Below, piece after piece: positions 12,524-50,543 of a DNA stretch of 64,000 nt. Position numbers and translations under genes: made by a program. This DNA is from a virus (Duplodnaviria > Caudoviricetes): positions 39,596 to 103,595 of the IMG/VR virus record IMGVR_UViG_3300021256_004135. One strand, given 5' to 3'. The notes below the pieces were generated by a model. The model made no database searches. It saw only the letters and a program-made list of their open reading frames with translations, and was not told where the DNA came from. Position 1 is the first letter of the stretch, and each line of letters opens with the position of its first letter.

Positions 12524-12534
12524 CACACCAAGTG

Positions 12535-14621: not shown

Positions 14622-14632
14622 ATTGTATCCTC

Positions 14633-22450: not shown

Positions 22451-22711
22451 TCAGCCTTTCACAGCTTTGTCGATGACATCCTCTTCCACCAGCCTAACGC
22501 CGCATTCTGGACAGCAGCCGAGGGCTTCGGCCTTGTATGTTCCGCCGCAGTCGCAATCCATATCCACCGCCCAGCCGAGGCTAAAATCAACATTCATCGG
22601 CTTACCGCAGCGGTCGCAGTAAAGTGTTCCCTTGCCAAGGACTCCTATGCCATAGTTCCGCTCGAACTTGTGGCCACATTTGTGGCAGTGCAGTTTGCTC
22701 GTCACTCCCAT
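22451..22711 (-). CDS. Small multi-CxxC zinc-ribbon protein (paralogue A)
   Basis: CHKCG, CDRCG, CDCGG, CPECG. Confidence 0.7.
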   Translation of the reverse strand: MGVTSKLHCHKCGHKFERNYGIGVLGKGTLYCDRCGKPMNVDFSLGWAVDMDCDCGGTYKAEALGCCPECGVRLVEEDVIDKAVKG

Positions 22712-22715
22712 ATCT

Positions 22716-23243
22716 CTATAGCTCAAAGGTTTTTATCTCGCAGTTCCCCAAGGTGTATGAGGCGAACTCCTCGTTCTCCATCGGCTGGAAGTAGTTGGTG
22801 AAGACGCGACAGATGCCGTTGTGAGCCACCACAAGGGCATCCTCGTTCCGCTGTTTCAGCATCTCTATGAAAGGATACACTCTGGCTGCGACATCAAGGT
22901 AAGACTCACCGCCCTCGTAGCGTTTGAAGTATTTTCGTTTCTCCGACTGGTATTCGGCATTGGTGCGGACAGTTCCCTCGTATTTGCCAAAGTTCATCTC
23001 GTTGATACTTGCGCAGACCTCCAGACGGCAGTCCTTGTGTCTGTCGGCCACCATCATGCCCGTGACCATAGCGCGCTGGAGCTGCGAGGTGTAGACCACA
23101 TCCAAGTGGACGTTAGCCATCTCCTCGGCCAACTTTTCGGCTTGACGGATGCCATTGTCGTTGAGCGGAATGTCCGTCATCCCCTGCACCCAGTCCTTCA
23201 CATTCCAGATGGTCTCTCCGTGCCTTGTCAAATATATCTTCAT
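22716..23243 (-). CDS. Histidine phosphatase (phosphoglycerate mutase family)
   Basis: RHGET, SQLQRA, GES, VAHNG. Confidence 0.9.
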   Translation of the reverse strand: MKIYLTRHGETIWNVKDWVQGMTDIPLNDNGIRQAEKLAEEMANVHLDVVYTSQLQRAMVTGMMVADRHKDCRLEVCASINEMNFGKYEGTVRTNAEYQSEKRKYFKRYEGGESYLDVAARVYPFIEMLKQRNEDALVVAHNGICRVFTNYFQPMENEEFASYTLGNCEIKTFEL

Positions 23244-23256: not shown

Positions 23257-24183
23257 TCACCATTTCCTTAAATCAGACGAACTCTCCACCACATCTTCAA
23301 TATCATCAGGAAGGTTATAGAAGAAATCCATCCCAGTCACCTTCTCCACCTCATCCACACTTAACAGATAATAATCGAGTGGATGGCCTTCTCCATCATT
23401 CTTGTATATGAAGCCCATCGCTTGTGGTTTCTTCCCAAGTCTCAACACAACTTTGAAGAAAGCATCGGGAACACCTACTTTATTAGCACCCATCGTGGCA
23501 TAGTCATCACTATAGAAAATGGGGCCAGTTGCAATGTATACCTCTCCGTAGTGCTTTGCCCAGCCACGGCACCTTCTTTCAAGATACTCCCAATTATTCT
23601 GATTTAAGGTGCTGTTTTGTGGACACATATTAGTCAGCAGGAAAGATTGGTGCATGGCATCCCTGCTCCACTTATTATCACCTGCAGGACATAGATGTCC
23701 GTGGTCGATAGGAAGCCCCGTATTATACCAGTCACTCAACTCCTGCCTTCCGCCTTCCACCTCCATATCTTCGTAATATGGAACACCTTTTCTGCTAAAA
23801 GGACCATCAACGTGTTCACGGGTCAACTTCCAGGCAACCCAGTTGGCATTCTTGGTCTGATTGTTGTAGGAGGTGATATAACCAACCCGTTTCAGCATCT
23901 GTTCCGGCCGTTTTACAGTCATCCGAGGAAGTTCAATCCTATATAAGTCCTCATCGGTAAGAGTCTCATTAACTTGCAGGGTTGGAGTATCATCTACTTT
24001 GTCATCCTCGACCGCAGATGCACTGACGGCATTCACCTCATCCTCATTCCAACTTTTCTCACTGCTCACGAATGGAGCAATCTCATCCAAGTCATCAGCA
24101 GAATCACTGCTTGGACTGACAAGTTTAATGATAAAGGCAAGGAGAATAATGCCGGAGAACGTAAATATGAGAACTTTTTTCAT
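23257..24183 (-). CDS. DNA/RNA non-specific endonuclease (NucA-like) with N-terminal membrane anchor
   Basis: DHGHLCP, TNMCPQ, LNQNNW, VPDAFFKV. Confidence 0.9.
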   Translation of the reverse strand: MKKVLIFTFSGIILLAFIIKLVSPSSDSADDLDEIAPFVSSEKSWNEDEVNAVSASAVEDDKVDDTPTLQVNETLTDEDLYRIELPRMTVKRPEQMLKRVGYITSYNNQTKNANWVAWKLTREHVDGPFSRKGVPYYEDMEVEGGRQELSDWYNTGLPIDHGHLCPAGDNKWSRDAMHQSFLLTNMCPQNSTLNQNNWEYLERRCRGWAKHYGEVYIATGPIFYSDDYATMGANKVGVPDAFFKVVLRLGKKPQAMGFIYKNDGEGHPLDYYLLSVDEVEKVTGMDFFYNLPDDIEDVVESSSDLRKW

Positions 24184-24195
24184 ACCGCATCATTA

Positions 24196-25698
24196 TTACA
24201 GCGCATACACAGCCAGAAAAAATCCCTTACTATCCTTCCACATATTCCATCCATTCACGGTTTTCCCCATCACAACAGATGCAGCATATATCGGGTCTTT
24301 GAATATCTCATCAGCCTTTAACCTATAGCCAGTCCTTTCACGGGTGCAATTCTCATTTATGACATTTACTCTCAAACGTCCGACAGCAGATTGGTCAAAT
24401 TTTGCCGCTTTAGTGGTAAGTGACAGCAGGCTTCCTTCTTTAATCGTGAATTGTCCAGAAGTCGGGTCGTAATAGCCTTTTGCATCATACACATCCGATT
24501 CTCCGATAGAAGTTCTCAAATAGAATGCGTGAGCGCCCCATCTGATTTTTGGCCTCTCGGAAGTATCATTACCATTGCTGCTCTGCGATGGTTTCTTCAC
24601 AGCGGAATCTGGCGTTCCTCCTATAAAGAAATAGTTAGGATAATAATCTTTCAGATACTTTCCGTTGCTATCTTTCCAAAGCGTATAATCAACCTCCCTA
24701 CCCGTAACATATCGAGCAGCAGCAGTTGCGCTGATACACTTTGCGTCCTTTATTACCTTCCAGCCTCTTGCCGTTTTCTCGCAGGATTTATCGAGGAATC
24801 TCTGTCGCTTCGGCGTTATTTCAAGACCCTCGTCCACAATACTGCCGGCACAAACATAGAATACTCCGTCCTCTGGCAGAAAATAGCCATTTGCATTACA
24901 TTCGCCAAGCAACAAATTAAAAATATGTTGCGAGGGCTTGGCTTTGGGTTGGGAAATCGTTGGGACTTCTTCTTTCTTATTCTTTCTTGGTGCGCCAAAG
25001 GCAAATTCAAGTTGTTCATTTGGATTGGCCTCCGAAGAATGAATGAGGATTTTTTTATACGCAGGATCATCCACCAATGACCGCCCATCATCATCCACCC
25101 ACATTTCAACGGATGACTTCTCCCCAAGATACCAACTTGCCGCATTGGATGCCGACTCATATTTTCGATTTGACTTCTCATAACAGAACCCATCCTTTCT
25201 CTCATACTTCATAAACTTCCAAAAGTCATGTTCTGTTGAGCCAGTTTTATTCAATTCTTCTGAAAAGAATGAATTTTCCAGTACAATAAACTCTCCATTA
25301 CCCAACGCGCTCAAATACCCTGCCGCGTATGAAACCACCTGTCCATTCTCTTCTTTCTTGATATAATACAGATGGTGGCCGGCATTATATTCGGAATAAA
25401 TTGTCCTCTCTAAAATCAATACACGATATGGAATGAGAGTAATATTGTCAAACGGCAACGGTTTCTTCCTTATCCCATCACGGAGATGACGCAACATTAC
25501 CGTACTATTAGTATAGTGTATCTTTTTGTGATAAAAGACATCCCCAGCATAGTATTTCAAAAGCGACGATTTCGGCTCTGCCAGAATTTGAGTTCTCAAC
25601 GAATCATACTCTTCTTCGTCAAAAAGCATCTTCCGAGATACTGGCCCGTGCAGTTTCTCATACTCGGCATTTATGTCAAAATCCTCGTCCATCATCAC
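24196..25698 (-). CDS. Protein with three DUF4357-like repeats
   Basis: Three repeats of G..F.V..(G/N)S.....AA...G.....W.D..G..L; ATGA overlap with the zorB-like gene. Confidence 0.7.
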   Translation of the reverse strand: MMMDEDFDINAEYEKLHGPVSRKMLFDEEEYDSLRTQILAEPKSSLLKYYAGDVFYHKKIHYTNSTVMLRHLRDGIRKKPLPFDNITLIPYRVLILERTIYSEYNAGHHLYYIKKEENGQVVSYAAGYLSALGNGEFIVLENSFFSEELNKTGSTEHDFWKFMKYERKDGFCYEKSNRKYESASNAASWYLGEKSSVEMWVDDDGRSLVDDPAYKKILIHSSEANPNEQLEFAFGAPRKNKKEEVPTISQPKAKPSQHIFNLLLGECNANGYFLPEDGVFYVCAGSIVDEGLEITPKRQRFLDKSCEKTARGWKVIKDAKCISATAAARYVTGREVDYTLWKDSNGKYLKDYYPNYFFIGGTPDSAVKKPSQSSNGNDTSERPKIRWGAHAFYLRTSIGESDVYDAKGYYDPTSGQFTIKEGSLLSLTTKAAKFDQSAVGRLRVNVINENCTRERTGYRLKADEIFKDPIYAASVVMGKTVNGWNMWKDSKGFFLAVYAL

Positions 25699-26489
25699 TT
25701 GTTTTTCGATTTCGATTCTCCCTTGACCTCTTCTATCTTTGCCTTCGTCACGTCAATGTTACCGATAACTGGAACTATATGGATAAGGAAACGCTGATTT
25801 TTCTCCTCTATCGAATTAAACATCCGTTTATATTCCACGGGATTTGGATACTGCGCCCTCAAAGCCTCTTCGTCCGGCACATATCTTGGAACACCACCCT
25901 CGCCGCTGCCGGATATGATAACCTGACATTGGGGAGACTCAAGGTCGATGCCGTTGGCTTTCCAGAACTCATTGAGATACTGGGCGCGGAGGTATGACAA
26001 TGTGTAGTTGTTCATCCAGTCGTTTGCGTGGTAGGGCATTCTCGATGCCTGACCTTCTATGATGACCAGGAACTTTATGTTATCCGATGCACTATCTGAT
26101 TGTTCAAGTGAGGAAATAGTCTTTTTCACCAACTGACCAGCCGCTATAATACTGTCGCGAATGGAATTGGCCTTTTCGACATTATTAGTACCGTCATACA
26201 GCAGTTTGTGCTGAATATCATACTCTCGTGTCTGATACTGAACATCAACTGTGAACAGATGTTTCAGGTATTGCTTATTGTAGCCAAAATAGCTGGTGGA
26301 GTCGATGGCACTGACTGTAGAATAAACGGTGATGATATTCTCGTATTCATCCACAAGGCTCTGAAGTTGCTTCTCCTTGACTTTGAAACGACTGAATGAC
26401 ACAGCAAACAACACCAACATGATGGCGAACAAAGTCGTCATCACATCAACGTAACTTGGCCAAAAATGTCCGCTGTCCTTACTGTCCAT
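25695..26489 (-). CDS. ZorB/MotB-like protein (TM Asp plus OmpA-like peptidoglycan-binding domain)
   Basis: FWPSYVDVMTTLF; IEGQAS...NYTLSYLRA...G.G...NQR. Confidence 0.8.
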   Translation of the reverse strand: MDSKDSGHFWPSYVDVMTTLFAIMLVLFAVSFSRFKVKEKQLQSLVDEYENIITVYSTVSAIDSTSYFGYNKQYLKHLFTVDVQYQTREYDIQHKLLYDGTNNVEKANSIRDSIIAAGQLVKKTISSLEQSDSASDNIKFLVIIEGQASRMPYHANDWMNNYTLSYLRAQYLNEFWKANGIDLESPQCQVIISGSGEGGVPRYVPDEEALRAQYPNPVEYKRMFNSIEEKNQRFLIHIVPVIGNIDVTKAKIEEVKGESKSKNK

Positions 26490-28065
26490 CGTTCTGTCTC
26501 CTACCGAAATTGAAGATTCCGCCGCCTCTGCGCTGGCTATCGTCTAACTTCTTCAACTCACCCTGAATGCCATCCAACTTCTTTTCGATACCAGCAATAT
26601 TTCCAGCATTCACTGGGTCTTTTGCAATAATACGGAGTTGGTCGATAATGTCGTTTATCTTTTTCAGGTTAGAAAACTCTGAACGAATATCTTCAATATT
26701 GAATTTGGCCTGCAACGCAGCCAACAACTCATTATGCCACTTCTCCAACTCGGCTGTTTGGTCGGCAATCATTTGTTCAAATCCCTGGGCATGACCCTCA
26801 ATTGCCTCACGATACCGGCGGTTCATCTCACCAAGCACCTTGGTCTGCTCCGTGTAAAGGTCTTCCAGTTTACCATCAGCCATCTCAAGGAATCTGTCGG
26901 CAATCTTACCCTTCTTGGAAATACCTTTCACCTGACGTTCTATCTCTTCAATCACTTCATTGCCAAGAATGTCACGCCGACGGAGTGCATCACCGGCCTT
27001 ATTAACGCTATCCTCAAAGTTCTTAATGCGGTCAAGAATCTGGTTAAGGCGGACGACAATTTCTCTGGGTATCTTCAACGACTCGGAATACTGATCCTGA
27101 ATGGCGATAGCCTCCTGCGCTGCCGCAAGCATCATCCGGCGAGCCTCCTCAAACTTATTGAGAGATTGGGTAATACTTACGAAGTGATTTGCCGCTTCAA
27201 TATACTTCTCCATTCCAGTAATCAGTTCCTTGCTCTTGAATGTGTCAAGCAACTTCTGCTGGAGAGCAATGTTAGCGTTAATCTTGTCCATGTTCTGTCC
27301 CATGGTATTCACGGCACTCGTCACAGCACTCACATTCTGCTTGAAGTCTTCTCCGAATGCACGTGTCACCTCTGCGAAAGCAGACTTAAACCCATCAATA
27401 ACAACAGTAAAAGCGGGCTGGAAGGTATCAACCGTATCGTGGAGTTTGCTGATAGCAGAAACAAGACTTGCGCTGGCAGTCTTGGTGACATCCGTCTGGA
27501 TGAAGTCGAAGAAATCGTTCTTGTCATCCTCTACCTTCTTGCGAGCAGTTCCTGCCTTGGCATTGTTATATGTTGTCAAGACAAGACCACTCAAACTGGT
27601 GCTCATTGAAATAAGAACACCAGTCAAAAGGTTTTTGATAGATTCATCACCAAAGTTTACTCCGTCATACCCCACCAGAAACATCAAAATGCCAATGAAA
27701 ACGCCCAAGAACGTACCCATTAGACCGATGTATGTCGGGAACGACTGGTAAACTGTAGACTGGTCGTATCGGAGGTTGATTTTTCGTTCTACCTTATTTT
27801 GGATAAACTGATAGTCGGATGTGCCTTTTGTTTTGAAAAGGTATACGTTTATCTCCTTTATAAGTTCATTCAAATCGGAATCACCTTTTCCAACAAGGTG
27901 TATTTGTGGGTATTCCTCCCCATTAAGTGATAATATTTCAGAGCCATAATCTCTTTCTCTGTCGAAGAAGTTGGAAAAGCGGCTCCTACACTTCCCTGTA
28001 TCCAGAAAGAAATATAACTGGATAGCAAAGAATATGAGGAACAATACGATAGATACTACATACAT
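26479..28065 (-). CDS. ZorA/MotA-like protein (3 TM plus long helical tail)
   Basis: FPTYIGLMGTFLG and ISMSTSLSGL MotA/TolQ/ExbB helices, then ~350 aa of coiled-coil-like sequence. Confidence 0.8.
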   Translation of the reverse strand: MYVVSIVLFLIFFAIQLYFFLDTGKCRSRFSNFFDRERDYGSEILSLNGEEYPQIHLVGKGDSDLNELIKEINVYLFKTKGTSDYQFIQNKVERKINLRYDQSTVYQSFPTYIGLMGTFLGVFIGILMFLVGYDGVNFGDESIKNLLTGVLISMSTSLSGLVLTTYNNAKAGTARKKVEDDKNDFFDFIQTDVTKTASASLVSAISKLHDTVDTFQPAFTVVIDGFKSAFAEVTRAFGEDFKQNVSAVTSAVNTMGQNMDKINANIALQQKLLDTFKSKELITGMEKYIEAANHFVSITQSLNKFEEARRMMLAAAQEAIAIQDQYSESLKIPREIVVRLNQILDRIKNFEDSVNKAGDALRRRDILGNEVIEEIERQVKGISKKGKIADRFLEMADGKLEDLYTEQTKVLGEMNRRYREAIEGHAQGFEQMIADQTAELEKWHNELLAALQAKFNIEDIRSEFSNLKKINDIIDQLRIIAKDPVNAGNIAGIEKKLDGIQGELKKLDDSQRRGGGIFNFGRRQNDGQ

Positions 28066-28069
28066 GGCA

Positions 28070-31000
28070 TCAAATCTTTGTCATCTGGAATACACGGTCA
28101 ATAATCGGCAGGAAGAACACCGAGTCGAACAATTCGACCTCCTCGGAGAACTTCTGCTCAACCTGCGATTTATAGTATGTGGCCAGAGGAACGCCCATGT
28201 CCTCATTTGCACAGCGGACATAACTGGTTGTGTCTGCCGTGCTGTCAAGGATTCTTTCCTTCTTGAGCAAGTCAAGAACATCCTTGTACAGAGTGTTGAA
28301 CTGGGCATATTTATCCATCAAAGATTTCTTCAAAGTGCCAAAGTTCTTCGTCATATCCCCGACTTTCTCATAATTGGCGGACATATCGCCCTGATAAACC
28401 TTTTCGGGGACGGACTCCGCATCGGAGCTACGGTACAGACCGCCATAGCAGGTGGCCTCTTTCCTCTCAACGGGGAGTTTGAGTATGACATCATGCTCGC
28501 CACCGAAGACCGAGGCGAACACCTTGTCGATAATCTTCTTGAGAACCTCTCTCTCGGAGCAGATGAAGCCGTCGATATACTTACTGCCGTTTCCGCTGAA
28601 CACGATGGTCTTGGGAGCTGGGCAGTTGTAGTCTTTGAACATCGAGGCCATGTAGAACATAATAGATGTGAAGTGGTATACAAAGACTGGCTTGAAGTCC
28701 TCAGAGAGATGTTGTTTGATGTCGCAGAAGTCGGAGTTGCCCAACCAGAAGTTGATAATGTCCTTGGTCGAGTTGTCATCCACGTTCTTGAAGCAGGTGT
28801 TAAGCTCCTCCAGGTCATCGCGTCTGAATCTCAAACTGTCAGCATAGCGTTTGTAGATACCGTTCTGCTTCTCATTGACGAACTCCACAAAGCCGTTACC
28901 CCACAACACATCGCATCCAAAGTGGACAGAGTTGGCCATAACTGGTTTGTTGTCCTTGAAATAGACAAAGTCGGTGGAACCGCCTCCGATGTCGATAACA
29001 CTGACCGCCTCGGAGTCTTTGATGTAATCCATCTTCTTGAAGTAGTAGTATGGAGCCTCCGACTCGGAATAGCAATCAATCTGGCTCGGCTGAATGCGAA
29101 GGATGCGGGCGGCCTCCTCTTCCCATGCCTTCTTGTAGGCACTACGGATAGTACCAGTAAAGCTCAACGGACGGAACCACACAATGCTTGTACGGTCTAA
29201 ATCACCGTTACGCTGCAATATATCGCACTTGATGATGAGCAACAGTTCCTGGATGAAAAGGCGGATATACTCTCCGTTGTTCTGCCACTTGATGTCGGTT
29301 TTCACGTTCTGGTCGTCATCAGCCATCAACTTCTCATAGAAGAATGCGATGTTGTGGTTGTCAAACAACCTCGGCAAATCCCTCTGGCTCAATATGCCGC
29401 AAAGGGCTGTCCTAATCGGGAACTTGTAATCCTTGCCGTCGATGAACGCGGGCAAGAACTCCGTCTTGATACGCTTCTGTGCTTTCTCGAATATCGACCC
29501 TTCAATACGGCGAGCCAACGAAACCTGCATATCCTCTGGAGTCTCGTGCATGTAACTCACCATCGGGCGGAGCATGGAGAACAGTTCGGGCTTGTTGTTT
29601 CCACCTTCCAGACATCTCGATATAAACGTGTTCGAGGTGCCGAGGTCAATCGCGTACTTGAATGTTGTATTGGTGGCTTCGCTATGCTCCCATTGCGGCA
29701 TCAGAATACCTCTGTCGCCAAGCACATCAACCTCAATCAGGTCGAAGGAGGTATTGTATATCTCGTAGAACTTCGTACCGCCTTCCATTTCTTCGCTCTT
29801 CTGGCGTGAGCGAACCACAGCGGGCAACACACCAAAGTCAGCCTCGTGAGCCTCCCTCTCGTGGATTTGAGCCAGTCCGTTGGCCGACTTCTTGAAGAAC
29901 GAGATAAATATTTGGTCAATGTTGAAGTTCGGAGCATCGGGAGATTCGTCCGCACCGATAACCAACAGTTTGAAGTAGTTGTTCTCTTCGTCTTTATGCG
30001 ACAGAATGTTGGGGAAGAGGCCAAGGTCGAAACTGATGAGAGCCTTCTGCATATCCACTATCCTTCCCATACCTGGCTTCAACTGTTCTTCGGCATATTC
30101 CTTCTTGTAGGTCTCGCCATTGTAGCGCAGCTCAACCGTAACGGAGTTTCTGTTGATATGCAGGTCAGCATCAATGTCCTTGCCATCAAACAAGTTCACA
30201 ATCTCCGGCTTGAAGGGCATCAGATAATCGTAGTCTCTTTCCTTTATATCATTCTGGTATTCTATCGATGCAAATCTCTTTCTGTCTATTCTGTAAGGAA
30301 CCTTGATAAGAGTCGGGTTGAAGTAGCTGTCAATGTCAATCTCATCGGAAGACTTTATCACCAAACCGTTCACAATCAAGTCATCGTTCTGGTCAGTCTT
30401 TATTCCAACCAAGTTCTGTTTGTAGTCGTTGCGGATTTCCTCGTCATTCTTGAAACTGCGAATGTACTCCTTAATGGTTTTGAAACGAGGGTCAATGTCA
30501 TCCGAGCCGAAAAGACGGTACATGTAATTCTTGAAGTCTTTGTCTCGCTCTTCAAACATCTTGATTTCACGGAAATACTCTCCTCCCGATTTCCTGCGGA
30601 TATGAAGATTGTCGTACTGCACTCCGGCGAATACGGTGTGTATAGAAGCATCTTGTTTCTTCAAGGACTTGTCCATGTCAGGGGGAGTAACAAAGCCCGT
30701 CAATGGCGAAGTGCAAGCCAGCAGTTTGTCATGTCCGTCCTCCGTATACACAAGGAAATACAGCTTTTCTTCCCTGATGTCCGTGCTGTAATACTCGTTG
30801 ATGGAGTTGTAAAGCACCGGCATTTTTGCCTTTAAGTAGGCAAGATTCTCGGCGGCATTCCATTCACGAAGCTCCACCTTCTCTCCACTCTTCCATGAGT
30901 TGTTCACATGGTACTTGAGGTTGAAGAGCAACTCATACACATCAAGGATGTCGGAGACCATCTGACGGTATGCGAAACCAGCCTCTTTTTTGCTGCTGAT

Positions 31001-31204
31001 ATGCTCTTCCATTGCTCTACGGAAAGCCTCTTTCGCGACAAAGAAACGGGCGAAGGGGGTCGGCAGGGAGTTCAGCGCGCCGCTGTTATCCGTTTTCTGT
31101 TCAAGAACGGCATCAAGATGTTCCGGCGTTAAACCAGTATCTTCTGCAATCCAGTTAGACCCTTGTATTCCACGGTCTACAATATTCAAATCTATTCTTG
31201 ACAT
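28070..31204 (-). CDS. Large actin/Hsp70-fold (ASKHA) ATPase
   Basis: AIDLGTSNT (phosphate 1), SESEA (connect 1), VIDIGGGSTD (phosphate 2), VFSGNGSK (adenosine). Confidence 0.8.
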   Translation of the reverse strand: MSRIDLNIVDRGIQGSNWIAEDTGLTPEHLDAVLEQKTDNSGALNSLPTPFARFFVAKEAFRRAMEEHISSKKEAGFAYRQMVSDILDVYELLFNLKYHVNNSWKSGEKVELREWNAAENLAYLKAKMPVLYNSINEYYSTDIREEKLYFLVYTEDGHDKLLACTSPLTGFVTPPDMDKSLKKQDASIHTVFAGVQYDNLHIRRKSGGEYFREIKMFEERDKDFKNYMYRLFGSDDIDPRFKTIKEYIRSFKNDEEIRNDYKQNLVGIKTDQNDDLIVNGLVIKSSDEIDIDSYFNPTLIKVPYRIDRKRFASIEYQNDIKERDYDYLMPFKPEIVNLFDGKDIDADLHINRNSVTVELRYNGETYKKEYAEEQLKPGMGRIVDMQKALISFDLGLFPNILSHKDEENNYFKLLVIGADESPDAPNFNIDQIFISFFKKSANGLAQIHEREAHEADFGVLPAVVRSRQKSEEMEGGTKFYEIYNTSFDLIEVDVLGDRGILMPQWEHSEATNTTFKYAIDLGTSNTFISRCLEGGNNKPELFSMLRPMVSYMHETPEDMQVSLARRIEGSIFEKAQKRIKTEFLPAFIDGKDYKFPIRTALCGILSQRDLPRLFDNHNIAFFYEKLMADDDQNVKTDIKWQNNGEYIRLFIQELLLIIKCDILQRNGDLDRTSIVWFRPLSFTGTIRSAYKKAWEEEAARILRIQPSQIDCYSESEAPYYYFKKMDYIKDSEAVSVIDIGGGSTDFVYFKDNKPVMANSVHFGCDVLWGNGFVEFVNEKQNGIYKRYADSLRFRRDDLEELNTCFKNVDDNSTKDIINFWLGNSDFCDIKQHLSEDFKPVFVYHFTSIMFYMASMFKDYNCPAPKTIVFSGNGSKYIDGFICSEREVLKKIIDKVFASVFGGEHDVILKLPVERKEATCYGGLYRSSDAESVPEKVYQGDMSANYEKVGDMTKNFGTLKKSLMDKYAQFNTLYKDVLDLLKKERILDSTADTTSYVRCANEDMGVPLATYYKSQVEQKFSEEVELFDSVFFLPIIDRVFQMTKI

Positions 31205-31207
31205 ACT

Positions 31208-32605
31208 CTATCGGTTTATCTTTTCAGTATAGTTGTTAATGGCCTCGTAAGCAAATTGCAGGAAGAACCTGAACTTGTTACTGTGTTCCTTTGAAACGTC
31301 CTTGTTACTGGCCTTAATCATTTGAAGCAGGTAATAGGAATCATCCTTTGCATCAAGGTCATATCCTTTAATCCAACCGCTCATCTGGCGGAGATTGTCA
31401 TAATGCAACGGAGCGAAAGCTCGCTTGTTCTGCGAAAGTTCGCTATACCACTTGTAGTATATGTCCGTGAACTTTACCAGAGACTGGAATGTGGCATCCT
31501 TGTAGAAGTCACCGTTGAAGCCTCGATTGGTCGCCAACGGGAAGAAGCTCTCGTGAGGCAACGTCTCTATCATAGCTCTTAACAACATGTAGTCAGCAAC
31601 ACTCTTGACCACATCCTTATAGCCAGTTCCCATAGAAGCCAAATCCAGCGACTCCAAGTCGTCTTCAATTGCCCTGGTCAGGAACTGCTGTCTGTCGGGT
31701 TTCTCTCGTTTGAGGAAGTCGAAGAGGGCGGAAGCGGCCACCAACTCTATGAAGTTGGCTTTGTCATCCTGCTTCTTCTCATCGTTTTCATAAATCTGTT
31801 TCAGGCTCTTCTCTCCAACATAGTAGAGATAATCCGATTTCACCGTTCCGTGATAATAGGCAAGTGCCGACTTGGTCTTGGTGTAGAAGTTGGCAGAGTC
31901 GATGTCGCTGTTGGACAGCATCGGGTCTTTCAGTCCATAGTAGGGAAGGACTGTCACAGCGCCCATAGTGGCGTTCTTCACAGCGGGTTCGTTCTGCGCC
32001 AGACGGATTTTCTTCTCCAGCAGGGGGTATCCAGAAGCACCTGTGCCGCCGAAGATGGAACTGATGATGAACACTCTGTCTTCCTTCTCGCATTGCTGCT
32101 TGAACGACTTGAACCAGTCCGCACCCTCAATCATGTCACCCAGTACCACGGTGCCCACATTGGGGTTGCCCTTGAAACCGACTGACAAAGGATTGTTGAG
32201 GTTCTTTGTGGAGAACATCGTCTCCACAAGATAGTTGTTGATATTGCTGGCATCGAGGTTGGCCACGTCGATATAGGAACGGAACTTCTCCTGGCTTCCA
32301 GCGTTCTGCTGGGTGTCGTTGGAAATGCCGTTCAGCTCGTTGATAGTGCGAATCTCCGAATTGAAGAAACCTTTTAACGGATTGAGCGTGGATGTACCGT
32401 TGTTATTGGAACGCTTGTAGATTTCCTCGTATGTCTCAAGGAGCGAATGCAAGTTCTTCTTCTCCTCCAAATCCAAATGGGGGTCAAGAATCACGGGAAC
32501 GACGGTGTAGCCATTGGTACTCATACCGCCAGCCATAAGCATGGTTATGCTTTTCATCACACGGATGCCCGTGCCTCCAACACAAAAAACAAAGACTTTC
32601 TTCAT
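31208..32605 (-). CDS. Divergent tubulin/FtsZ-like GTPase
   Basis: CVGGTG N-terminal loop, GFKGNPNVG, SIFGGTGASG tubulin signature. Confidence 0.85.
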   Translation of the reverse strand: MKKVFVFCVGGTGIRVMKSITMLMAGGMSTNGYTVVPVILDPHLDLEEKKNLHSLLETYEEIYKRSNNNGTSTLNPLKGFFNSEIRTINELNGISNDTQQNAGSQEKFRSYIDVANLDASNINNYLVETMFSTKNLNNPLSVGFKGNPNVGTVVLGDMIEGADWFKSFKQQCEKEDRVFIISSIFGGTGASGYPLLEKKIRLAQNEPAVKNATMGAVTVLPYYGLKDPMLSNSDIDSANFYTKTKSALAYYHGTVKSDYLYYVGEKSLKQIYENDEKKQDDKANFIELVAASALFDFLKREKPDRQQFLTRAIEDDLESLDLASMGTGYKDVVKSVADYMLLRAMIETLPHESFFPLATNRGFNGDFYKDATFQSLVKFTDIYYKWYSELSQNKRAFAPLHYDNLRQMSGWIKGYDLDAKDDSYYLLQMIKASNKDVSKEHSNKFRFFLQFAYEAINNYTEKINR

Positions 32606-32613
32606 GTCAGCAA

Positions 32614-33057
32614 CTAAAATTTAAGTAAACGATAAGCATTAGTCGGCAACCAATTACACCATACGACGGAGGTTAAGAGGTATACCAACGTGGCATATAC
32701 AGCATTGCCCAAAGCAATCTTGACTTCGAGCATCAAAGCCCCGTCAAGTTTGGGAGCGGCCACTATGTATTCAAACACCAAGGTCGCAACAAAACTCGCG
32801 ACAAACGTAATGAGCATAAAAATGAGCCAATTCTTGGGCTTGAAATGACGGCCTGGTTTCTCGTTGTATGGACCGTAGTAGCACCATGCGAACAAAATGC
32901 CCAGTACCACGAAGAGGGCTATGATGATAAGCCCGTCGCCCTCCAACTGATGCCAGAAGCCTCTGGCCCTGTTATAGAGAACCTCATTCTCGGAGAATCG
33001 TTTTGTAAAGTCGTTTGCAGATCCTGCAATCCACTTGTAAAAATCCAAATTCTTCAT
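32614..33057 (-). CDS. Small three-TM membrane protein
   Basis: Three hydrophobic segments; 5- and 8-nt gaps to its neighbours. Confidence 0.75.
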   Translation of the reverse strand: MKNLDFYKWIAGSANDFTKRFSENEVLYNRARGFWHQLEGDGLIIIALFVVLGILFAWCYYGPYNEKPGRHFKPKNWLIFMLITFVASFVATLVFEYIVAAPKLDGALMLEVKIALGNAVYATLVYLLTSVVWCNWLPTNAYRLLKF

Positions 33058-33062
33058 TTCGT

Positions 33063-34301
33063 TTAATTCTTCTTGGAGATTAAAATATAATTCGGTTTTA
33101 TTTCATTGGTCAAGCCCCCGAACATTCCCTCACAAAAATCTTTGACAGAGAACGATTTTGTCGGGTCATTCGGATTGGTTGCATCATCAAAGAACTCGCC
33201 CATAAGCGTATACTCCTTATCGGGCAACTCCAGACTCCATTCCAGCACTTCCGAGTCCATAACCATGCCGTACACTTTCAGTATCACCGTGGCTTTGCTG
33301 TTCTTCTTGTCCATCTCGATGCCAGACACCTTTACGAAGGAGCCGTAGGTGCTTTTCACTTTGAACGCAGCCTCGAAGTGTTCCTCATCGGTCATTATCC
33401 AGCGGTAGTTTTCAAGATTGACATTGAGTTTAATCGTGCAGGTGTCGCCCTCCTCCTCATCCTCATATCCAATGAAAGTAGGTTCCTTGTCTTCCATCTG
33501 ATAGCATTTCTGCGGAACACCAAAAGAGTATGCTGGTCTGCCGTAGTCAAAGCCTGCCTCGATATTATCAACGAAACGGTCTGCATTGAAAAGAACAGCG
33601 GAAATAAGATTGCGCACTCTGGCCACCTCCGGTCCATTGCCCATTATCAAGAAGTAATAGGGAGCTCTGCTGGTGACAATTTTTCCTGCTTTGTCTTGGA
33701 AATCAGATGTCGCACAAACCAGACTTGCAGCCTTCCCAAAGTTATAGAACATCTTGGCAATATCACTGCGGTACTGTGTAACCAGAACTTTGGCGGATTT
33801 CATATCGACAGGATCATAGCGCATATCCGACACAAAGACCGCAACCTCTCCGTTGTCGGCATCAAGATTCTCCGTGATGTTGCGAAGCATCTCGGAAACG
33901 ACCGTCGAGTTGGTGGACACGAATGCGCCGCCGTTCATAGCCTGACGGAAGTCACTCTGCTCCATACGGCGGGGTCTATCTCCTTTGAGGTCTTCCATCA
34001 CATAGATTTCGGACACGGCGGAGCATCTGTTCATAACACTCCATACATCCTCTTTGAAACCAGTCGGTTTATTGGAACGGAAGAAACCGTTCATACTGCC
34101 GGACACCTCAAAATAGAATTTCACTTTCGTGGGTTCCGCTGGAGCGAAGACAACAGAGTCCTGCTGATTATAGATGGCATACCCATCTTCATCAAAATGA
34201 GAGTCATTCTCCGTATTTATAGAGCCACAACCAGTCAGGGTTCCGATGGCTAACGCCAGACCCATAAATGCTGCGCCCAAATGTAAATTTACTTTTCTCA
34301 T
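33063..34301 (-). CDS. Lipoprotein with vWA-like domain
   Basis: Lipobox LTGC; FYFEVSGSM (MIDAS-like) and VFVSD. Confidence 0.7.
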   Translation of the reverse strand: MRKVNLHLGAAFMGLALAIGTLTGCGSINTENDSHFDEDGYAIYNQQDSVVFAPAEPTKVKFYFEVSGSMNGFFRSNKPTGFKEDVWSVMNRCSAVSEIYVMEDLKGDRPRRMEQSDFRQAMNGGAFVSTNSTVVSEMLRNITENLDADNGEVAVFVSDMRYDPVDMKSAKVLVTQYRSDIAKMFYNFGKAASLVCATSDFQDKAGKIVTSRAPYYFLIMGNGPEVARVRNLISAVLFNADRFVDNIEAGFDYGRPAYSFGVPQKCYQMEDKEPTFIGYEDEEEGDTCTIKLNVNLENYRWIMTDEEHFEAAFKVKSTYGSFVKVSGIEMDKKNSKATVILKVYGMVMDSEVLEWSLELPDKEYTLMGEFFDDATNPNDPTKSFSVKDFCEGMFGGLTNEIKPNYILISKKN

Positions 34302-34371
34302 CTTACTCTTTTATATAAATATACATTACTATATATTGTGTACAACAAACTGTTTCTTAATTTATTACAAA

Positions 34372-34405
34372 TTGCCCTACTGACAATATCAATAGGGCAA
34401 ATATA
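34372..34405 (-). promoter_or_regulatory. TAnnTTTG promoter element with adjacent inverted repeat upstream of the tubulin/ZorAB operon
   Basis: gcaaatata (= TATATTTGC on minus) at 34397-34405; ttgccctactga-N5-tcaatagggcaa at 34372-34400. Confidence 0.5.
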
Positions 34406-34467
34406 CGAATAATATTCGGATTATTTTTGAATCTTTTTGCTATTCTGAGTAAAAATATTATAAAACA

Positions 34468-36889: not shown

Positions 36890-37192
36890 TCAGCTCAGAC
36901 TGTTGATAATGTTTCTCTCATTGATATGGACATTGCCGTCCACCTTGGCCAAGTTCATAAAATATTCTTTAGCGATATTCCTCTTCTCGTCATCCATCAT
37001 TCCAAACTCGTTCTTCAGGACTGCGAAATCGAGCATATCCATGTGGTCAAATTCGGCAGAGGAAAGTCCAAAATCTTTCATCAAGGATTTGATGTATTCA
37101 ATCTCCCTGGGATGAATGACGGAATCAGCCTCCATTATCATAGTGAGGAGATGTAGTATCGTCCTCTTTTCCTGTTCACTAAACTTACTCAT
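36890..37192 (-). CDS. TerB-like protein
   Basis: Duplicated ADSVIHPRE / VDGNVHINE motif. Confidence 0.75.
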   Translation of the reverse strand: MSKFSEQEKRTILHLLTMIMEADSVIHPREIEYIKSLMKDFGLSSAEFDHMDMLDFAVLKNEFGMMDDEKRNIAKEYFMNLAKVDGNVHINERNIINSLS

Positions 37193-39699
37193 GCTTCTAT
37201 ATTGTTTGTAAAGAAATCGTGATATTTGCTATTACCGAGGTTAAGTATGAAAAGGTTCCGCTTCGCTCGTGTGATAGCGGTATAAATCAGAGCCGGAGAG
37301 TTCTCGTTCTCAATGACATTGTACACATCGTCCTCAATGGTTCCTTCGGGCTGGAGAATCAATATAACCGCAGGAGACTCCCATCCCTTAAAACTGTGTA
37401 TCGTGGCCATTTTTATACCGGCATAGTCTATCGTGAAATGAACTTTTTTCACTCTGCGGATGCTGTCGATGTCTGCTTTCGGCCACTTGCTGACAGCCTT
37501 TATTCTATCATACTCTTCCTTGGTCTCAAATGTCGTAATTGGCTGTTCTCCTCCATTCTTAATGTATGCTTCCTCAACACCACGAAGGACGCTGCATGTC
37601 TGGGAGAGTACCGTGACATCACGACGGTCAAGTTTGAACTCGTTGATTATCCAAAAGACGTTGGAACAGAGCGTTTCTGCTGTAACATCCCTCCCCACAT
37701 TCCAGTATTTAATGTAGAACTGCTCGAAAGGCATCATGCTCTGCTGTGCCAACGGCTCGGAGTAGTCGAAGAACGTCTCCTGGAAGAGAGTTGAAAGACG
37801 AGTAATTTCGGGATTTTCAATACGGAATGTCGTATTGGAGTTCTCGTTTATCTGCGTCCATCTGCCCATTACTGGAACCCGTGGAGTATGGTCGGTGTCT
37901 TGCTGACGGCTGTAAATATTCTGCCTGCCATCTCCGAAAACAACGAACTCGCCCCCCTCTTTAAGGAAGTAGTTCTTAATCACAAGATACCATGCGTACC
38001 TATAATCTTGTGCCTCATCAAAAAGGATGGTGTCATACCTCATAGTATATTTCTTATACCGTTCAAAGAAGTTTTCGTCATCCCAATCGTCAATGTGAGG
38101 CTTCAAATTGTGGTTGTTCGCCTGCGACTTGAAGAACTGGTGATAGTTGGTTATATCAAACTGACCCCAGTTGAAATCGGCGGCGACCTGACTCATTCTG
38201 TATTTGATGTAGTTCACCAGAGTGAGGTTGAATGTCAGCACAAGAACTCGGCCTCCAGTTCTGACCTGGGCATTCACTGCCCTCCACGCAAGGACTTGCG
38301 TCTTTCCCGATCCTGCAACACCCTTAATCTTCTGCTCCACACTCTTGCTCTGCGCCAGTTCACGCTGTCTCTTTGTAGGTGTAATATTCTCATTTCCTTC
38401 CTTGTAACTATGCCAACCCTTACTGGTTATAAGTTCCAGAACATTCCTACACAAATCGTCGGTAAAATATCTGTTATCCCAAGAAAGGTTTAATTTTTCA
38501 AGGAGGTTGTCAGCCAGTATATCGTCCCTATAAATTCGGGCAACATACTTGTATTTATCCTTGCTTACACCAATATTCTCTCCATCCTTCTCCGTCGGGA
38601 AGAAAATAGCCTGCTTGATGGCCGACCAATAAGACGTATTCAACAAGGCTTTTCCAAAGACATCCCGCAGATGCACATTGTACAAGTTGCGTTGGTAAAC
38701 CTCTGTTCTCTCAAATTGAGCCTCCGCATTATTCTTATCGTTGCAGATATTGAAGATTAGCATACCCTTTCCTGGTCTCACCACGACAATATCAGGAACG
38801 TCTGTTGATATGTGAGGCTGGATGAAGATGCTGTCGGAGTCGCTCAATTTGGCTCGGATGGCGTTATATGCGTTGATGATATTGTCATTGACAATTCCTC
38901 TTAACGATTCCGCCACATAACTATAATCATCAATAAATGTGGCCTCATTTGCCTTCTCGACGTAGTTCTCGTTGATGTTACTGGAGGACAACGAGAAGCA
39001 CATCGTTTCGCATCCGAAGGGATGGTGTGTTTCCGTGTAAGCATACGGGTATTGAGAAATCCTCGAAAAGACATTCTTTTCGGGGAAGAACCCAGCAAAG
39101 TCTGAAATGCGGCTTTCTCCTCTCATAGCCGGACCCACACACACAATCTGTTGTTGCCTCGTGAATGAAGCCACTTTCTTTGCCAGCCACCTCAAACTCA
39201 ATGTCCGAATGTCGAGGATGTTTGAAAAGAGATGGATGGCCATCGGTGCCGACGACGCAACCTCCGACAAGTCTTTGGACACCTCTGAACTTGGTATGCA
39301 CTTGTTGATGGCAATAACCTCCACTCTCTGGTCTACGGCACGCTTTACAAATGCCTCCGCACGCCGCAAGGCAGGCTCGGACGGCTCGATGAGCGTTATG
39401 CGTTTCAATCCGTATACCTTCCCATGCTCTTTGAGCATATCATACAACGTAAGCGATGCTATACCCTGACCGCAGCCCCAATCCACTATCTCATAGTTTG
39501 TTAGACCATCAAACGGGAAGTTCTGCAACGCCGCCCTGCACTTGATGAAGTGCATCTCTCCGTATGCCGCAATGTAGGCATTCAGCTGTTCTTCCGTCTG
39601 CAAGATGGCTCTGCCGTGATTTGTGGCATCCCACGGTCGAGCCTTCATGCTGTCAGGAAGTTGCGTGGTGCAGTACCTTATCAGTTCTTGAGTGTCCAT
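37189..39699 (-). CDS. SAM-methyltransferase-like / degenerate NERD / SF1 (UvrD-like) helicase fusion
   Basis: VDWGCGQG; PDIVVV; GVAGSGKT, FDEAQD, FGDGRQNIY, TIHSFKGWE, YTAITRAK. Confidence 0.85.
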   Translation of the reverse strand: MDTQELIRYCTTQLPDSMKARPWDATNHGRAILQTEEQLNAYIAAYGEMHFIKCRAALQNFPFDGLTNYEIVDWGCGQGIASLTLYDMLKEHGKVYGLKRITLIEPSEPALRRAEAFVKRAVDQRVEVIAINKCIPSSEVSKDLSEVASSAPMAIHLFSNILDIRTLSLRWLAKKVASFTRQQQIVCVGPAMRGESRISDFAGFFPEKNVFSRISQYPYAYTETHHPFGCETMCFSLSSSNINENYVEKANEATFIDDYSYVAESLRGIVNDNIINAYNAIRAKLSDSDSIFIQPHISTDVPDIVVVRPGKGMLIFNICNDKNNAEAQFERTEVYQRNLYNVHLRDVFGKALLNTSYWSAIKQAIFFPTEKDGENIGVSKDKYKYVARIYRDDILADNLLEKLNLSWDNRYFTDDLCRNVLELITSKGWHSYKEGNENITPTKRQRELAQSKSVEQKIKGVAGSGKTQVLAWRAVNAQVRTGGRVLVLTFNLTLVNYIKYRMSQVAADFNWGQFDITNYHQFFKSQANNHNLKPHIDDWDDENFFERYKKYTMRYDTILFDEAQDYRYAWYLVIKNYFLKEGGEFVVFGDGRQNIYSRQQDTDHTPRVPVMGRWTQINENSNTTFRIENPEITRLSTLFQETFFDYSEPLAQQSMMPFEQFYIKYWNVGRDVTAETLCSNVFWIINEFKLDRRDVTVLSQTCSVLRGVEEAYIKNGGEQPITTFETKEEYDRIKAVSKWPKADIDSIRRVKKVHFTIDYAGIKMATIHSFKGWESPAVILILQPEGTIEDDVYNVIENENSPALIYTAITRAKRNLFILNLGNSKYHDFFTNNIEA

Positions 39700-39732
39700 G
39701 TCAATCTGTTTTGATTATTGTTCAGGATCTCA

Positions 39733-40803
39733 TTATTGCTCTCCAGTTATCGTTTCGCCCAACTCATTCGTCTTGTGTCTTTCCCAGTTCTTCAATGCCG
39801 CACTCTTACTCGCATTCGCATAGCAATACTCACACAGATGCGGACAGGTGTTGTACTCTCCAATGTCCTTGCTCACCGTGCATCCACAGAACTGGCGTTG
39901 ACCTTTGTCCGTATTGTCTCCTCTTGTCGCATACTTACCGTTGGGGAGTATTATTGCATCCGCTGGTATCTGTTTTATCTCACCGAACAAATCGGAAGAA
40001 GGCATATCATGGATTGTCACTTTCAAGAAGTCCATAAGCCTCTTGTCCTTATATGCCAGCCGGATAATCAGCGCATCATCCACACAGCGGTTATGTTTCA
40101 CACCGAACTGTTCCAAGTCAACCTTCTCGCCGCACGTCGCCAAAGTATAGTTCCACCGTTTATTGAGTTCCGAGAGGCGTTTCGTGAAGTCCAACATCTG
40201 CTCCTCTGTCCAGTCCTTGTATTGTATGGCATTCTTCTCAAGATTGGATTTCACTTTTCTGTAAGACATGATGTCAGCGAAACTGAACACCATCTTTTCC
40301 GTATAGCCTTTCAACAGCTCTCCGATATTCTCAATCTTGGCCAGCAGGTCGTCTTCTCTGATGTTTTCTGCAAGAAATAACGGGTCAAAACGCCAGATGA
40401 CGTGACCCTTCCCCAAAGCATCGACAAGACGTTTGAAGGTATCAATGCGCTCTTCCACTCTGGGTACTCCTTTTTCCAAGCCCTCTGCCACATAATCGTT
40501 TAGAGTGTATTGAATATAGCATCCTATTCCCCTCTCTTTTAGGTAATCAAGATGCGTCAGAAGTGGTCGAGGATTTTTCGACCAGAAGACAATAAACCTG
40601 GTATTCTTGTATGACACATAACTCCGCACACCGTTGAACGGATTAGTCCATGCGGAATAACCTTTCTCCAGTCTTGCAAAGAACCAATCTGCATAGAATG
40701 CAGGAATATCGGTGCTTCTGCTTGCCGAGATAATCTCTGGCACCTGCATCGGCACTATTTCTCCGTTTTCTCTCGCGAGTTCTTCTTTCTTCCAAGTTGC
40801 CAT
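39733..40803 (-). CDS. DUF1848 family protein
   Basis: IISASRSTDIPAFY, WRFDP, CGC..SKDIG.YNTCPHLCEYCYA. Confidence 0.9.
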   Translation of the reverse strand: MATWKKEELARENGEIVPMQVPEIISASRSTDIPAFYADWFFARLEKGYSAWTNPFNGVRSYVSYKNTRFIVFWSKNPRPLLTHLDYLKERGIGCYIQYTLNDYVAEGLEKGVPRVEERIDTFKRLVDALGKGHVIWRFDPLFLAENIREDDLLAKIENIGELLKGYTEKMVFSFADIMSYRKVKSNLEKNAIQYKDWTEEQMLDFTKRLSELNKRWNYTLATCGEKVDLEQFGVKHNRCVDDALIIRLAYKDKRLMDFLKVTIHDMPSSDLFGEIKQIPADAIILPNGKYATRGDNTDKGQRQFCGCTVSKDIGEYNTCPHLCEYCYANASKSAALKNWERHKTNELGETITGEQ

Positions 40804-40829
40804 AATCCTATAATCGTATTATCACAAAT

Positions 40830-41630
40830 TTATAAACCAAGTCTTTTACTCTTTCCTTTTCCTAAACAATAAAAGCATTGTTGTTTATTTCCATACATAT
40901 CGTATTCATACCCCGTGCCCTTACAATGACTGCAAGATTCATATACTTCATAACCTTTTCCAAAACAAACAGGGCATTGTTTCCATTGTTCATGTCCGTG
41001 AGCATCAGTTCTGGAACAATAGGCGCATTTGAAGTTTCCCCCATACGCCTCAAATCTATAATATGTCTTTTCTTGACCCGACCCTCCGCATCGAGAACAT
41101 GTTACCCGTGTTGCAGTTGATGAGGCAGAGTTGGTTATACTTTGTTGTGGCTGATCATAAATGGAAGGATTCTTCAAATTGCTTTGTGTTGTAGACAAAG
41201 AAGGTGACGAACTTATCGGTGATGAACTTATCGTAGTATTATGGATATTTTGAGTTGAACTTACTGTATTGCTATAGGATGAACTGGGAACTGTTTGTGG
41301 AGTGCTTTGAGAGGTATGTGTTCTGTATCCTGAATTGGAAGTAATAGACAAACTATTACCTTTCTTGTATTCTGTTGGCAATTGATTTGTATTTCTGTAA
41401 TCGTTAGTGCTACTATTGAAGTTGGGAGATGTGGTATTTTCATACTGCACATTGTACCCATTGGAAGTACCTATTCCTCCAGAGCCACCTCCTACTTTGT
41501 GGGAGCCGAGTTTTGGTAACTTGATGTCACCATTGACGCACCCTCTTATCCCAGATACAATTATTGCAAGTGCAATAAAGCCATAAAACAAACAACCAAT
41601 GAAGTTAAAGTCATTATCCTTATATGACAT
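40830..41630 (-). CDS. Membrane-anchored Ser/Thr-rich protein with DnaJ-type CxxCxGxG zinc fingers
   Basis: N-terminal TM, S/T linker, four CxxCxGxG motifs. Confidence 0.7.
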   Translation of the reverse strand: MSYKDNDFNFIGCLFYGFIALAIIVSGIRGCVNGDIKLPKLGSHKVGGGSGGIGTSNGYNVQYENTTSPNFNSSTNDYRNTNQLPTEYKKGNSLSITSNSGYRTHTSQSTPQTVPSSSYSNTVSSTQNIHNTTISSSPISSSPSLSTTQSNLKNPSIYDQPQQSITNSASSTATRVTCSRCGGSGQEKTYYRFEAYGGNFKCAYCSRTDAHGHEQWKQCPVCFGKGYEVYESCSHCKGTGYEYDMYGNKQQCFYCLGKGKSKRLGL

Positions 41631-41728
41631 ATAGTTCTCCTCCTTTCTCCAAAATATCGGCATAGAGGCCGTCCAAGATAAGCCTCGACTCGTACCTGTG
41701 GCGTATGTATCGAATGGTCTGCATTGAA

Positions 41729-42214
41729 TTAAAAATCAGACAAGTCTACGAATTTGCTGTATTTCTTATACTCAATATTCCTTGTTTTCTCTTCGATTAT
41801 CTCTTTCAACGGTTTGGTTGTATCTATATCGCCATCGTACCACACCATAGTCAAAAGATGCTCAATGTCGGAATGAAAGTGTGCCACATATTTGCCTCTT
41901 CCCAGCACGATGAAAGGCCAGTTGTCGGAATCTTTTGGCAAGAACAGATTGTTCGGTCTCAATACTTCGTTGACATACTCTTTAACTTGCCATGCTTCAT
42001 CAAAACGCTCTATCTCATTGAGTTTCTCTGCACTTATCACCTCGCCTTTATGCACAAAAATCACCCCTTCTTCCTTCTCCAGCATTTCGTGAAGGTCTTT
42101 AAGCAAGTGCCATGAGGCGTACATAGGATGCCCTTCTAAAAAGCCGGAGTAGGTATCCATATAGTGAAAAGTCTCCAGCGTTGCCTCGGTATCTTTGAAC
42201 TGAATGGTATTCAT
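41729..42214 (-). CDS. Hypothetical protein
   Basis: 161-aa ORF 11 nt downstream of gmrSD. Confidence 0.65.
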   Translation of the reverse strand: MNTIQFKDTEATLETFHYMDTYSGFLEGHPMYASWHLLKDLHEMLEKEEGVIFVHKGEVISAEKLNEIERFDEAWQVKEYVNEVLRPNNLFLPKDSDNWPFIVLGRGKYVAHFHSDIEHLLTMVWYDGDIDTTKPLKEIIEEKTRNIEYKKYSKFVDLSDF

Positions 42215-42225
42215 GGCTTTGTTAT

Positions 42226-44391: not shown

Positions 44392-44425
44392 GGTGTGTCA
44401 AATTAAATGATTAGCGTATCAATAT

Positions 44426-48031: not shown

Positions 48032-48054
48032 ATTATGAATTGATTTCTATTCTT

Positions 48055-50539: not shown

Positions 50540-50543
50540 ACGC

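Follow-up and report, generated by a model that had tools for sequence, protein, structure and literature searches.

A 64,000-nucleotide (nt) stretch of the 103.6-kb virus record IMGVR_UViG_3300021256_004135 (hereafter the window), with integrase, terminase and portal genes, carries on its minus strand a gene cassette that is a real, conserved and as yet undescribed system; its core of four genes matches no known kind of system. The core consists of a vWA-type lipoprotein (33063..34301; 412 residues, Cys25), the putative sensor, whose C-terminal domain is of unknown fold; a membrane protein with three transmembrane (TM) helices (32614..33057; 147 residues), the putative signal relay; a tubulin/FtsZ-fold GTPase (31208..32605; 465 residues); and an ATPase of actin/Hsp70 (ASKHA) fold (28070..31204; 1044 residues). 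These are followed by an optional module of ZorA-like (26479..28065; 528 residues) and ZorB-like (25695..26489; 264 residues) motor subunits and by a clade-specific accessory, a cytoplasmic triple-DUF4357 protein (24196..25698; 499-500 residues). An earlier note on this DNA had described these seven genes as co-directional, with gaps under 10 nt or overlaps. All seven open reading frames (ORFs) were confirmed at their coordinates, with spacings of 5, 8, 3 and 4 nt and then overlaps, and the seven protein identities were upheld by profile, fold, TM or repeat tests. The note had ended the cassette at 24196, which proved too early. A gene for a membrane-anchored NucA-type nuclease (23257..24183, minus strand) starts only 12 nt after the DUF4357 gene, and because of this spacing, and because NucA fills the same slot at other loci, it belongs to the unit.

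Judged from the sequence, a promoter ahead of the cassette is plausible. A Bacteroidetes-type -7 box, TATATTTG, lies upstream of the lipoprotein gene on the minus strand (34400..34407), and its counterpart in the near-identical prophage L002, TAACTTTG, is kept. The proposal that the cassette stands behind a promoter of its own is thus carried by the box at 34407-34400 and not by a -33 box, which is not evident upstream of it. In 22 of 80 loci, against 9.4 expected from shuffles, the 250 nt preceding the lipoprotein gene contain TAnnTTTG, which is the Bacteroidetes-type -7 consensus; a sigma-70 promoter scan came close to chance (33 versus 25.5). Directly after the -7 box there is a 13-bp hairpin (34372-34400), absent from L002, which may be a terminator or a regulatory site.

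Profile comparison suggests, with moderate strength, that the lipoprotein contains a divergent vWA domain with a site resembling a metal-ion-dependent adhesion site (MIDAS). Its alignment matched the vWA profile with an hhalign probability of 81% (E 1.2e-5, 160 columns), whereas four control alignments stayed below 1%. The MIDAS-like residues E65-x-S67-x-S69, T133 and D159 are strongly conserved, E65 in 80 of 81 rows and S67, S69, T/S133 and D159 in 81 of 81. The lipoprotein profile had no match in Pfam or the PDB, and a search of the ESM Atlas gave weak vWA leads (at most 0.80) and otherwise only unnamed Bacteroidota clusters. The 147-residue protein encoded next to it shows three hydrophobic helices. 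In the prophage L002/L110 a different sequence takes the place of the window's tract at about 32750-34750, the first ~100 codons of the 3-TM gene having been exchanged along with the lipoprotein gene; identity to the window is 64% for the lipoprotein and 89% for the 3-TM protein, whereas the remaining six proteins are 99-100% identical. Another short recombination tract (30250-31000, 90-96% identity to L002) lies within the ATPase gene, in its 5' portion, where the tubulin interface predicted below is encoded.

The model of the 465-residue protein (predicted local distance difference test, pLDDT, 92) matched FtsZ, tubulin and CetZ in Foldseek. Among its structural neighbours are CetZ 3zid (Z 13.9; root-mean-square deviation, rmsd, 5.8; 214 aligned), FtsZ 2vaw (Z 13.1; 4.2; 214) and tubulin 7quc (Z 13.0; 3.5; 216). 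Across 142 sequences the T1, T3 and T4 motifs vary little or not at all, and the window protein carries GGTG (T1), GFKGNPN and SIFGGTGASG (T4). The T7 motif (N-x-D-x-x-D after H7) is not conserved in the same set, columns 298-309 being variable in sequence and length. Most structural matches stop near residue 312, ahead of any FtsZ-type activation domain; no FtsZ-type C-terminal domain was found in the protein, which ends in a helical C-terminal domain. Members of the family are ~460-520 residues long; clustering at 90% leaves at least 2398 relatives, and clustering at 50% at least 1564.

In the 1044-residue ATPase (model pLDDT 87.5) the actin/Hsp70 domain spans residues 512-930. Foldseek matched it to MreB (E 2.5e-9), and structural comparison to ParM 7x54 (Z 13.3; rmsd 4.3; 269 aligned) and MreB 4cze (13.1; 3.8; 288); these Z-scores of filament formers tie with those of the non-polymerising Hsp70, PilM and EutJ. 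The phosphate-1, connect-1, phosphate-2 and adenosine motifs are present, with D520, E714, D738 and G871 in 102 of 102 rows and G522, T523, G740 and G741 likewise invariant. An exopolyphosphatase (Ppx-GppA) identity was rejected, as the match was restricted to the phosphate-2 motif. Among the matches to cassette proteins, similarity to GldL was dismissed as coiled-coil noise.

Structure prediction points to binding between the tubulin and the N-terminal half of the ATPase. Co-folding of the tubulin with ATPase residues 1-512 scored 0.85, the best of three controls reaching 0.01; the runs share at least 89% of contacts, and the pLDDT of the partner is at least 80. The mark set for such complex scores was attained by 58 of 80 solved pairs and 2 of 110 mismatched pairs, counts that carry over only roughly to the alignments made here. 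On the ATPase side the predicted interface comprises W115 and residues 1-62, which are of low confidence in the monomer and include the invariant W18, P48 and P50. The tubulin would contribute residues 111-135, 147-160, 190-202, 241-266 and 286-316, including the post-H7 strand (305-316). Of the 26 N-terminal ATPase columns with the highest conservation, ten fall within this interface, and on both chains conservation is higher in interface columns than in the others, buried residues not being separated out. Single-sequence searches of the PDB returned no close relative of either chain, and we know of no comparable solved tubulin-ATPase complex.

The earlier note had spoken of two polymerising NTPases, and the cassette might be a cytomotive system in which the tubulin, the actin-fold protein or both polymerise, maybe as a heterodimer co-polymer, trapping phage DNA or deforming the membrane. 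Both folds are confirmed, their nucleotide-binding residues are invariant, the best structural neighbours are the filament formers CetZ, FtsZ, ParM and MreB, and tubulin loops 10-14, 41-44 and 143-146 are largely outside the predicted ATPase interface. Such a system is nevertheless improbable, given the lack of a conserved T7 after H7, the end of the structural match near residue 312, the post-H7 strand lying in the predicted contact with the ATPase, and actin-fold matches that do not separate filament formers from non-polymerising proteins. Since the T7 motif is missing and the predicted interface covers the post-H7 strand, a fixed heterodimer is favoured over two independent filaments. The idea of two polymerising enzymes was therefore not sustained, as there is neither a conserved T7 nor an FtsZ-type C-terminal domain, and the tubulin is predicted to be held by the N-terminal half of the ATPase.

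The motor is a ZorAB-like pair and an optional module rather than part of the core: the ZorA-like gene lies downstream of the core in 53 of 67 loci, and a ZorB-like gene occurs in only 1 of 40 Spirosoma genomes. The ZorA-like profile matched ZorA structures 8vvn_C (E 7.8e-8) and 8qyh (E 1.4e-4), and the ZorB-like profile matched ZorB 8vvn_B (E 1.1e-11) and 8qyd_F (E 1.1e-6). ZorA and ZorB structures rank ahead of MotAB and TolQ, the margin over TolQ being small for the TM part alone. The ZorB-like protein, with one TM helix, has Asp15 within FWPSYVD, conserved in 47 of 50 rows (the other 3 being gaps). In the ZorA-like protein, with 3 TM helices, T118 (55 of 56) and S157 (54 of 56) align to T147 and S184 of E. 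coli ZorA; the ZorA and ZorB residues matching Asp15, T118 and S157 are needed for Zorya defence (PMC11946911). To judge by coiled-coil and helical-bundle matches, the ~360 residues after TM3 probably form a long helical cytoplasmic tail. Scores stay under the family cut-offs, at 22.3 bits for NF033915 (cut-off 100) and 15.2 bits for NF041788 (cut-off 400), and the best PADLOC E-values for the pair are 6e-5 and 2e-7. No cassette protein had a PADLOC or NCBIfam match to ZorC, ZorD, ZorE, ZorF or ZorG.

The protein encoded after the motor has DUF4357-type repeats at residues 165-213, 301-352 and 444-497, and its relatives have one to three such repeats behind a conserved N-terminal segment. DUF4357 accompanies GmrSD and GIY-YIG nucleases as an accessory domain (PMC4619093), and the multi-DUF4357 protein probably binds DNA. 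Its listing as a component of the system holds for the window and not for the family at large, the cassette DUF4357 being limited to one 14-row clade that contains the window. The NucA protein (PF01223, E 7e-48; N-terminal TM helix) fills a variable slot for exported hydrolases: an exported nuclease or protease (NucA, SNase, EEP, trypsin or aspartyl protease) is found within 2.6 kb past zorB in 25 of 44 loci. Proteases are as frequent there as nucleases (trypsin 9, aspartyl protease 7, NucA 9, EEP 4 and SNase 3 of the 44 loci) and the exported sensor is variable, which would suit defence against other envelope assaults, such as contact-dependent toxins, predators or conjugating elements, or a machine for delivery or uptake of exported hydrolases. 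Either of these is quite unlikely, as the cassette has no secretion or uptake channel and temperate phages carry it beside anti-phage genes.

In most lineages a gene for a single-pass membrane protein (for example L045:7780-8979) lies between the ATPase and ZorA-like genes. Its C-terminal, cytoplasmic domain of ~105 residues, which has no Pfam match, is fused to the ATPase C-terminus in seven loci without the separate gene (L023-L026, L058, L096 and L097). Because it occurs either in a membrane protein or fused to the ATPase, the domain probably links the ATPase to the membrane as an adaptor; neither version exists in the window's clade.

Gene order was tallied from 89 loci. Of 68 informative loci, 66 keep the order lipoprotein, 3-TM protein, tubulin, ATPase, and the other two deviate only through artefacts of ORF calling, so the synteny elsewhere that the earlier note wished to see is present far beyond chance; the four-gene core is fixed and the motor is optional. 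The system is widespread in Bacteroidota. It was detected in 8 of 401 sampled genomes of the phylum, in 20 of 137 genomes of Bacteroides and in 59 of 151 of Prevotella/Segatella (the genus of G004). A ZorB-like gene is present in 41 of 41 Hymenobacter, almost always at a distance of 7-9 kb from the gene for the tubulin. All tallies by genus were made with profiles derived in part from the genera counted, and genera were assigned by locus title.

Within the window's clade (named from a FastTree tree that serves for clade labels and not for the order of events) the upstream neighbour differs in every locus, 17 of 17. One copy of the cassette, with 92% identical DNA over 24049-34231, occupies a non-phage chromosomal site adjoining a resolvase and a Schlafen gene and has a different NucA allele, and another resides inside an unrelated Mu-like phage. 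Defence genes flanking other loci include Gabija, AbiE and PDC-S01/S02/S05. In the window itself, the block from ~22.4 to 52.3 kb has a guanine-cytosine content of 0.41-0.48, lower than the 0.50-0.58 of most phage modules on either side. Replication/recombination genes of related phages lie at most 10 kb upstream of the counterpart of the endonuclease gene (21163-21564), whereas ~30 kb intervene here. The low content and this long interval indicate that the block is inserted cargo, and the proposed location in a prophage defence cargo was borne out by type I restriction-modification (RM), GmrSD-like and ApeA-like genes in the same block.

The view of a conserved, envelope-spanning multi-gene machine with a ZorAB-like motor is supported. 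The interpretation preferred here, to which we give an even chance, is that of an envelope-surveillance machine built on the four-gene core and serving, in a mobile Bacteroidales clade, as a prophage-borne anti-phage defence. An anti-phage function is likely for the window's clade rather than in general. In such a machine the exported lipoprotein, a vWA fold by profile match, would bind a ligand or sense envelope disturbance through its metal site. The 3-TM protein, which co-occurs with it and shares its allele swap, might pass the signal across the inner membrane. In the cytoplasm the tubulin-like GTPase and the actin-fold ATPase would form the predicted 1:1 complex and act, as their invariant catalytic residues suggest, as a two-nucleotide switch or scaffold. 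The ZorAB-like motor, where present, would be engaged or provide power, its tail gathering effectors on site by analogy with Zorya (PMC11946911). Interchangeable outputs would finally hit the invader: here the multi-DUF4357 protein and the membrane-anchored nuclease, elsewhere the exported nucleases or proteases encoded in the slot.

Several observations weigh against an anti-phage machine of this kind. The tubulin gene is found in 100 of 101 Hymenobacter and 40 of 40 Spirosoma genomes, a distribution not usual among anti-phage systems; in Spirosoma the core is present but the motor is nearly always missing, and the flanks in both genera are mostly housekeeping genes common to close species. 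A sister subfamily joins the core to TerD and OmpA genes. No obligatory toxic or nucleolytic effector is shared by all loci, and the peptidoglycan-binding motif of the ZorB-like protein is partly degenerate (EGQAS for EGHTD), with S165 and R168 invariant. The swap of the lipoprotein allele is a single event that could be neutral recombination, exported proteins being fast-evolving anyway, and the flank scans (sets de-duplicated by family, top 25 models) are indicative only and fall short of a formal enrichment test.

Many of these points would fit a housekeeping machine for envelope stress or for membrane or cell-wall remodelling, similar to Tol, Psp or Ter, whose genes travel on prophages and islands for the fitness they confer, without acting against phages in particular. 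The near-universal single copy in Hymenobacter and Spirosoma, the conserved housekeeping flanks and the TerD/OmpA-linked subfamily speak for it; further support comes from a tubulin that is very highly conserved inside genera and from the membrane remodelling predicted for FtsZl1 operons (PMC2875224). The earlier note would have abandoned a defence role if the homologues were housekeeping loci unlinked to defence, which is partly what was found: single-copy and near-universal in these two genera, mobile and defence-linked in the window's clade. The presence in only 8 of 401 genomes of the phylum, the patchy and mobile distribution in Bacteroidales, the nuclease and DUF4357 accessories, the defence neighbours, the sensor swap and a motor closest to ZorAB all argue against a purely housekeeping role, which is possible, if somewhat unlikely.

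No match to a described system was found, as had been expected of a PADLOC-type check, and no published description of the cassette was found in a literature search that covered few subscription papers, so that an earlier computational mention is possible. SrfB of SrfABC is likewise a protein of ~1000 residues with a C-terminal actin/Hsp70 fold, encoded in a conserved operon. Membership in the SrfB family (PF07520) was rejected, as relatives of the cassette ATPase score 9.2-9.9 bits against a cut-off of 27.1 and the window protein is unlisted, and neither SrfA nor SrfC was seen at the cassette.

The cassette resembles Zorya types I-III (PMC11946911, PMC11890865) in its adjacent ZorA-like/ZorB-like pair, the ZorB Asp, the ZorA Thr/Ser ring, the 3 TM helices and the long helical tail; in the window's clade, moreover, a probable DNA binder and a nuclease follow the motor, as ZorC and ZorD follow ZorAB. 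Membership was rejected because no ZorC, D, E, F or G is matched, the motor scores far under the family cut-offs, and the motor is optional and preceded by a four-gene core with no equivalent in Zorya. Here the nuclease is also membrane-anchored and the OmpA-like motif degenerate.

FtsZl1 operons combine a divergent FtsZ-like GTPase with genes for vWA and OmpA domains (Makarova and Koonin, 2010; PMC2875224). As in those operons, the cassette GTPase lacks recognisable T7 elements, has a helical C-terminus, is membrane-linked and has vWA and OmpA-domain genes alongside. FtsZl1 proteins, however, are of ~900-1100 residues with an extended coiled coil (913 in the Bacteroides caccae member; PMC2875224), whereas the cassette tubulin has 465 residues and a compact model without a long coiled coil. 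The cassette has no P-loop GTPase or kinase, judged by the lack of a Pfam match and of any such conserved neighbour family, and PMC2875224 does not mention a fixed actin-fold partner or a MotA-like gene. The window protein is unlisted for PF13809 (Tubulin_2), and its relatives reach 13-17 bits against a cut-off of 27, compared with 164 for a true member in G403. Membership in FtsZl1/PF13809 was rejected on the score, the missing coiled coil and the missing P-loop GTPase.

The DO-GTPase/GAP1 conflict systems include tubulin and HSP70 as non-overlapping themes, which occur in Firmicutes and Actinobacteria (Kaur et al., 2020; PMC7159879). They share with the cassette the character of mobile, membrane-proximal conflict operons with tubulin, vWA, HSP70-fold and trypsin modules, and differ from it in having no ion motor. 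DO-GTPase, GAP1, GASH and FNIII genes were not seen in the cassette, whose eight genes are otherwise accounted for and include no P-loop GTPase, although the GAP1 model was not searched directly.

More speculatively, and tentatively at best, the tubulin and actin-fold proteins would unite the two cytoskeletal NTPase folds in one fixed heterodimer, which an exported sensor would cause to assemble or to change state and which would be linked mechanically to a rotary motor driven by ions. The envelope machine would be ancestral, a core cell component in some Cytophagales; in gut Bacteroidales it would have been recruited, along with nucleases and ZorAB-like motors, to form a new class of phage defence. 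Among the libraries and papers searched there was no bacterial system with tubulin-fold and actin-fold proteins as fixed binding partners, nor one in which a separate sensor module precedes a ZorAB-like motor. If true, this would extend the roles of Zorya-type motors, provide a case of a T7-less tubulin partnered by an ATPase, and link housekeeping envelope machines to immunity, from the near-universal cassettes of Hymenobacter and Spirosoma to the mobile ones of gut and rumen Bacteroidales. Both ends of this range are testable in culturable strains.

Some further loci extend the family. L090:1773-12515, L091 and L092:7527-18779 have genes for an exported protein, a small membrane protein, the tubulin, the ATPase and a large protein, then TerD genes and a TM-OmpA gene, and no ZorAB; the TerD/TM-OmpA content of this sister subfamily is Pfam-confirmed in L090. 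A distant version (L089:7991-20997), with a tubulin of 600 and an ATPase of 1491 residues, lies in a prophage with terminase genes, in a host that looks non-Bacteroidota; its next ORF has an Hsp70-like start. One Hymenobacter genome has, besides its resident copy, two identical motor-less extra copies (L093 and L094; G001:C1, C2), one of them on a second contig.

In the window, a histidine phosphatase gene and a small Cys-rich ORF (22451..23243, minus strand) are tightly coupled downstream of NucA; they are not kept at other loci and are probably local cargo. In L110:4597-8845 an extra 3.4 kb lies between NucA and the phosphatase, with a partial second phosphatase and, by eye, Nudix-, Sel1-repeat- and exonuclease VII-like ORFs. 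Outside the system, upstream in the same low-GC block, the minus-strand defence cargo at 36890..52253 comprises TerB-like, methyltransferase-like/UvrD helicase, DUF1848 and GmrSD-like genes and the type I RM genes. Between the DUF1848 and TerB-like genes, 37189-39699 encodes an 836-residue fusion of a UvrD-type helicase to an N-terminus that reads as methyltransferase-like from its motifs. The RM genes hsdM-hsdS-hsdR span 44426-52253, with a PDC-S58/ApeA-like gene (48055-49287) inserted between hsdS and hsdR, and HsdR has a C-terminal extension of ~190 residues past its usual end. More non-phage-like genes lie within the head/packaging region, at 7314-8879 (plus strand) and 12038-15166, pointing to several cargo sites in the prophage.

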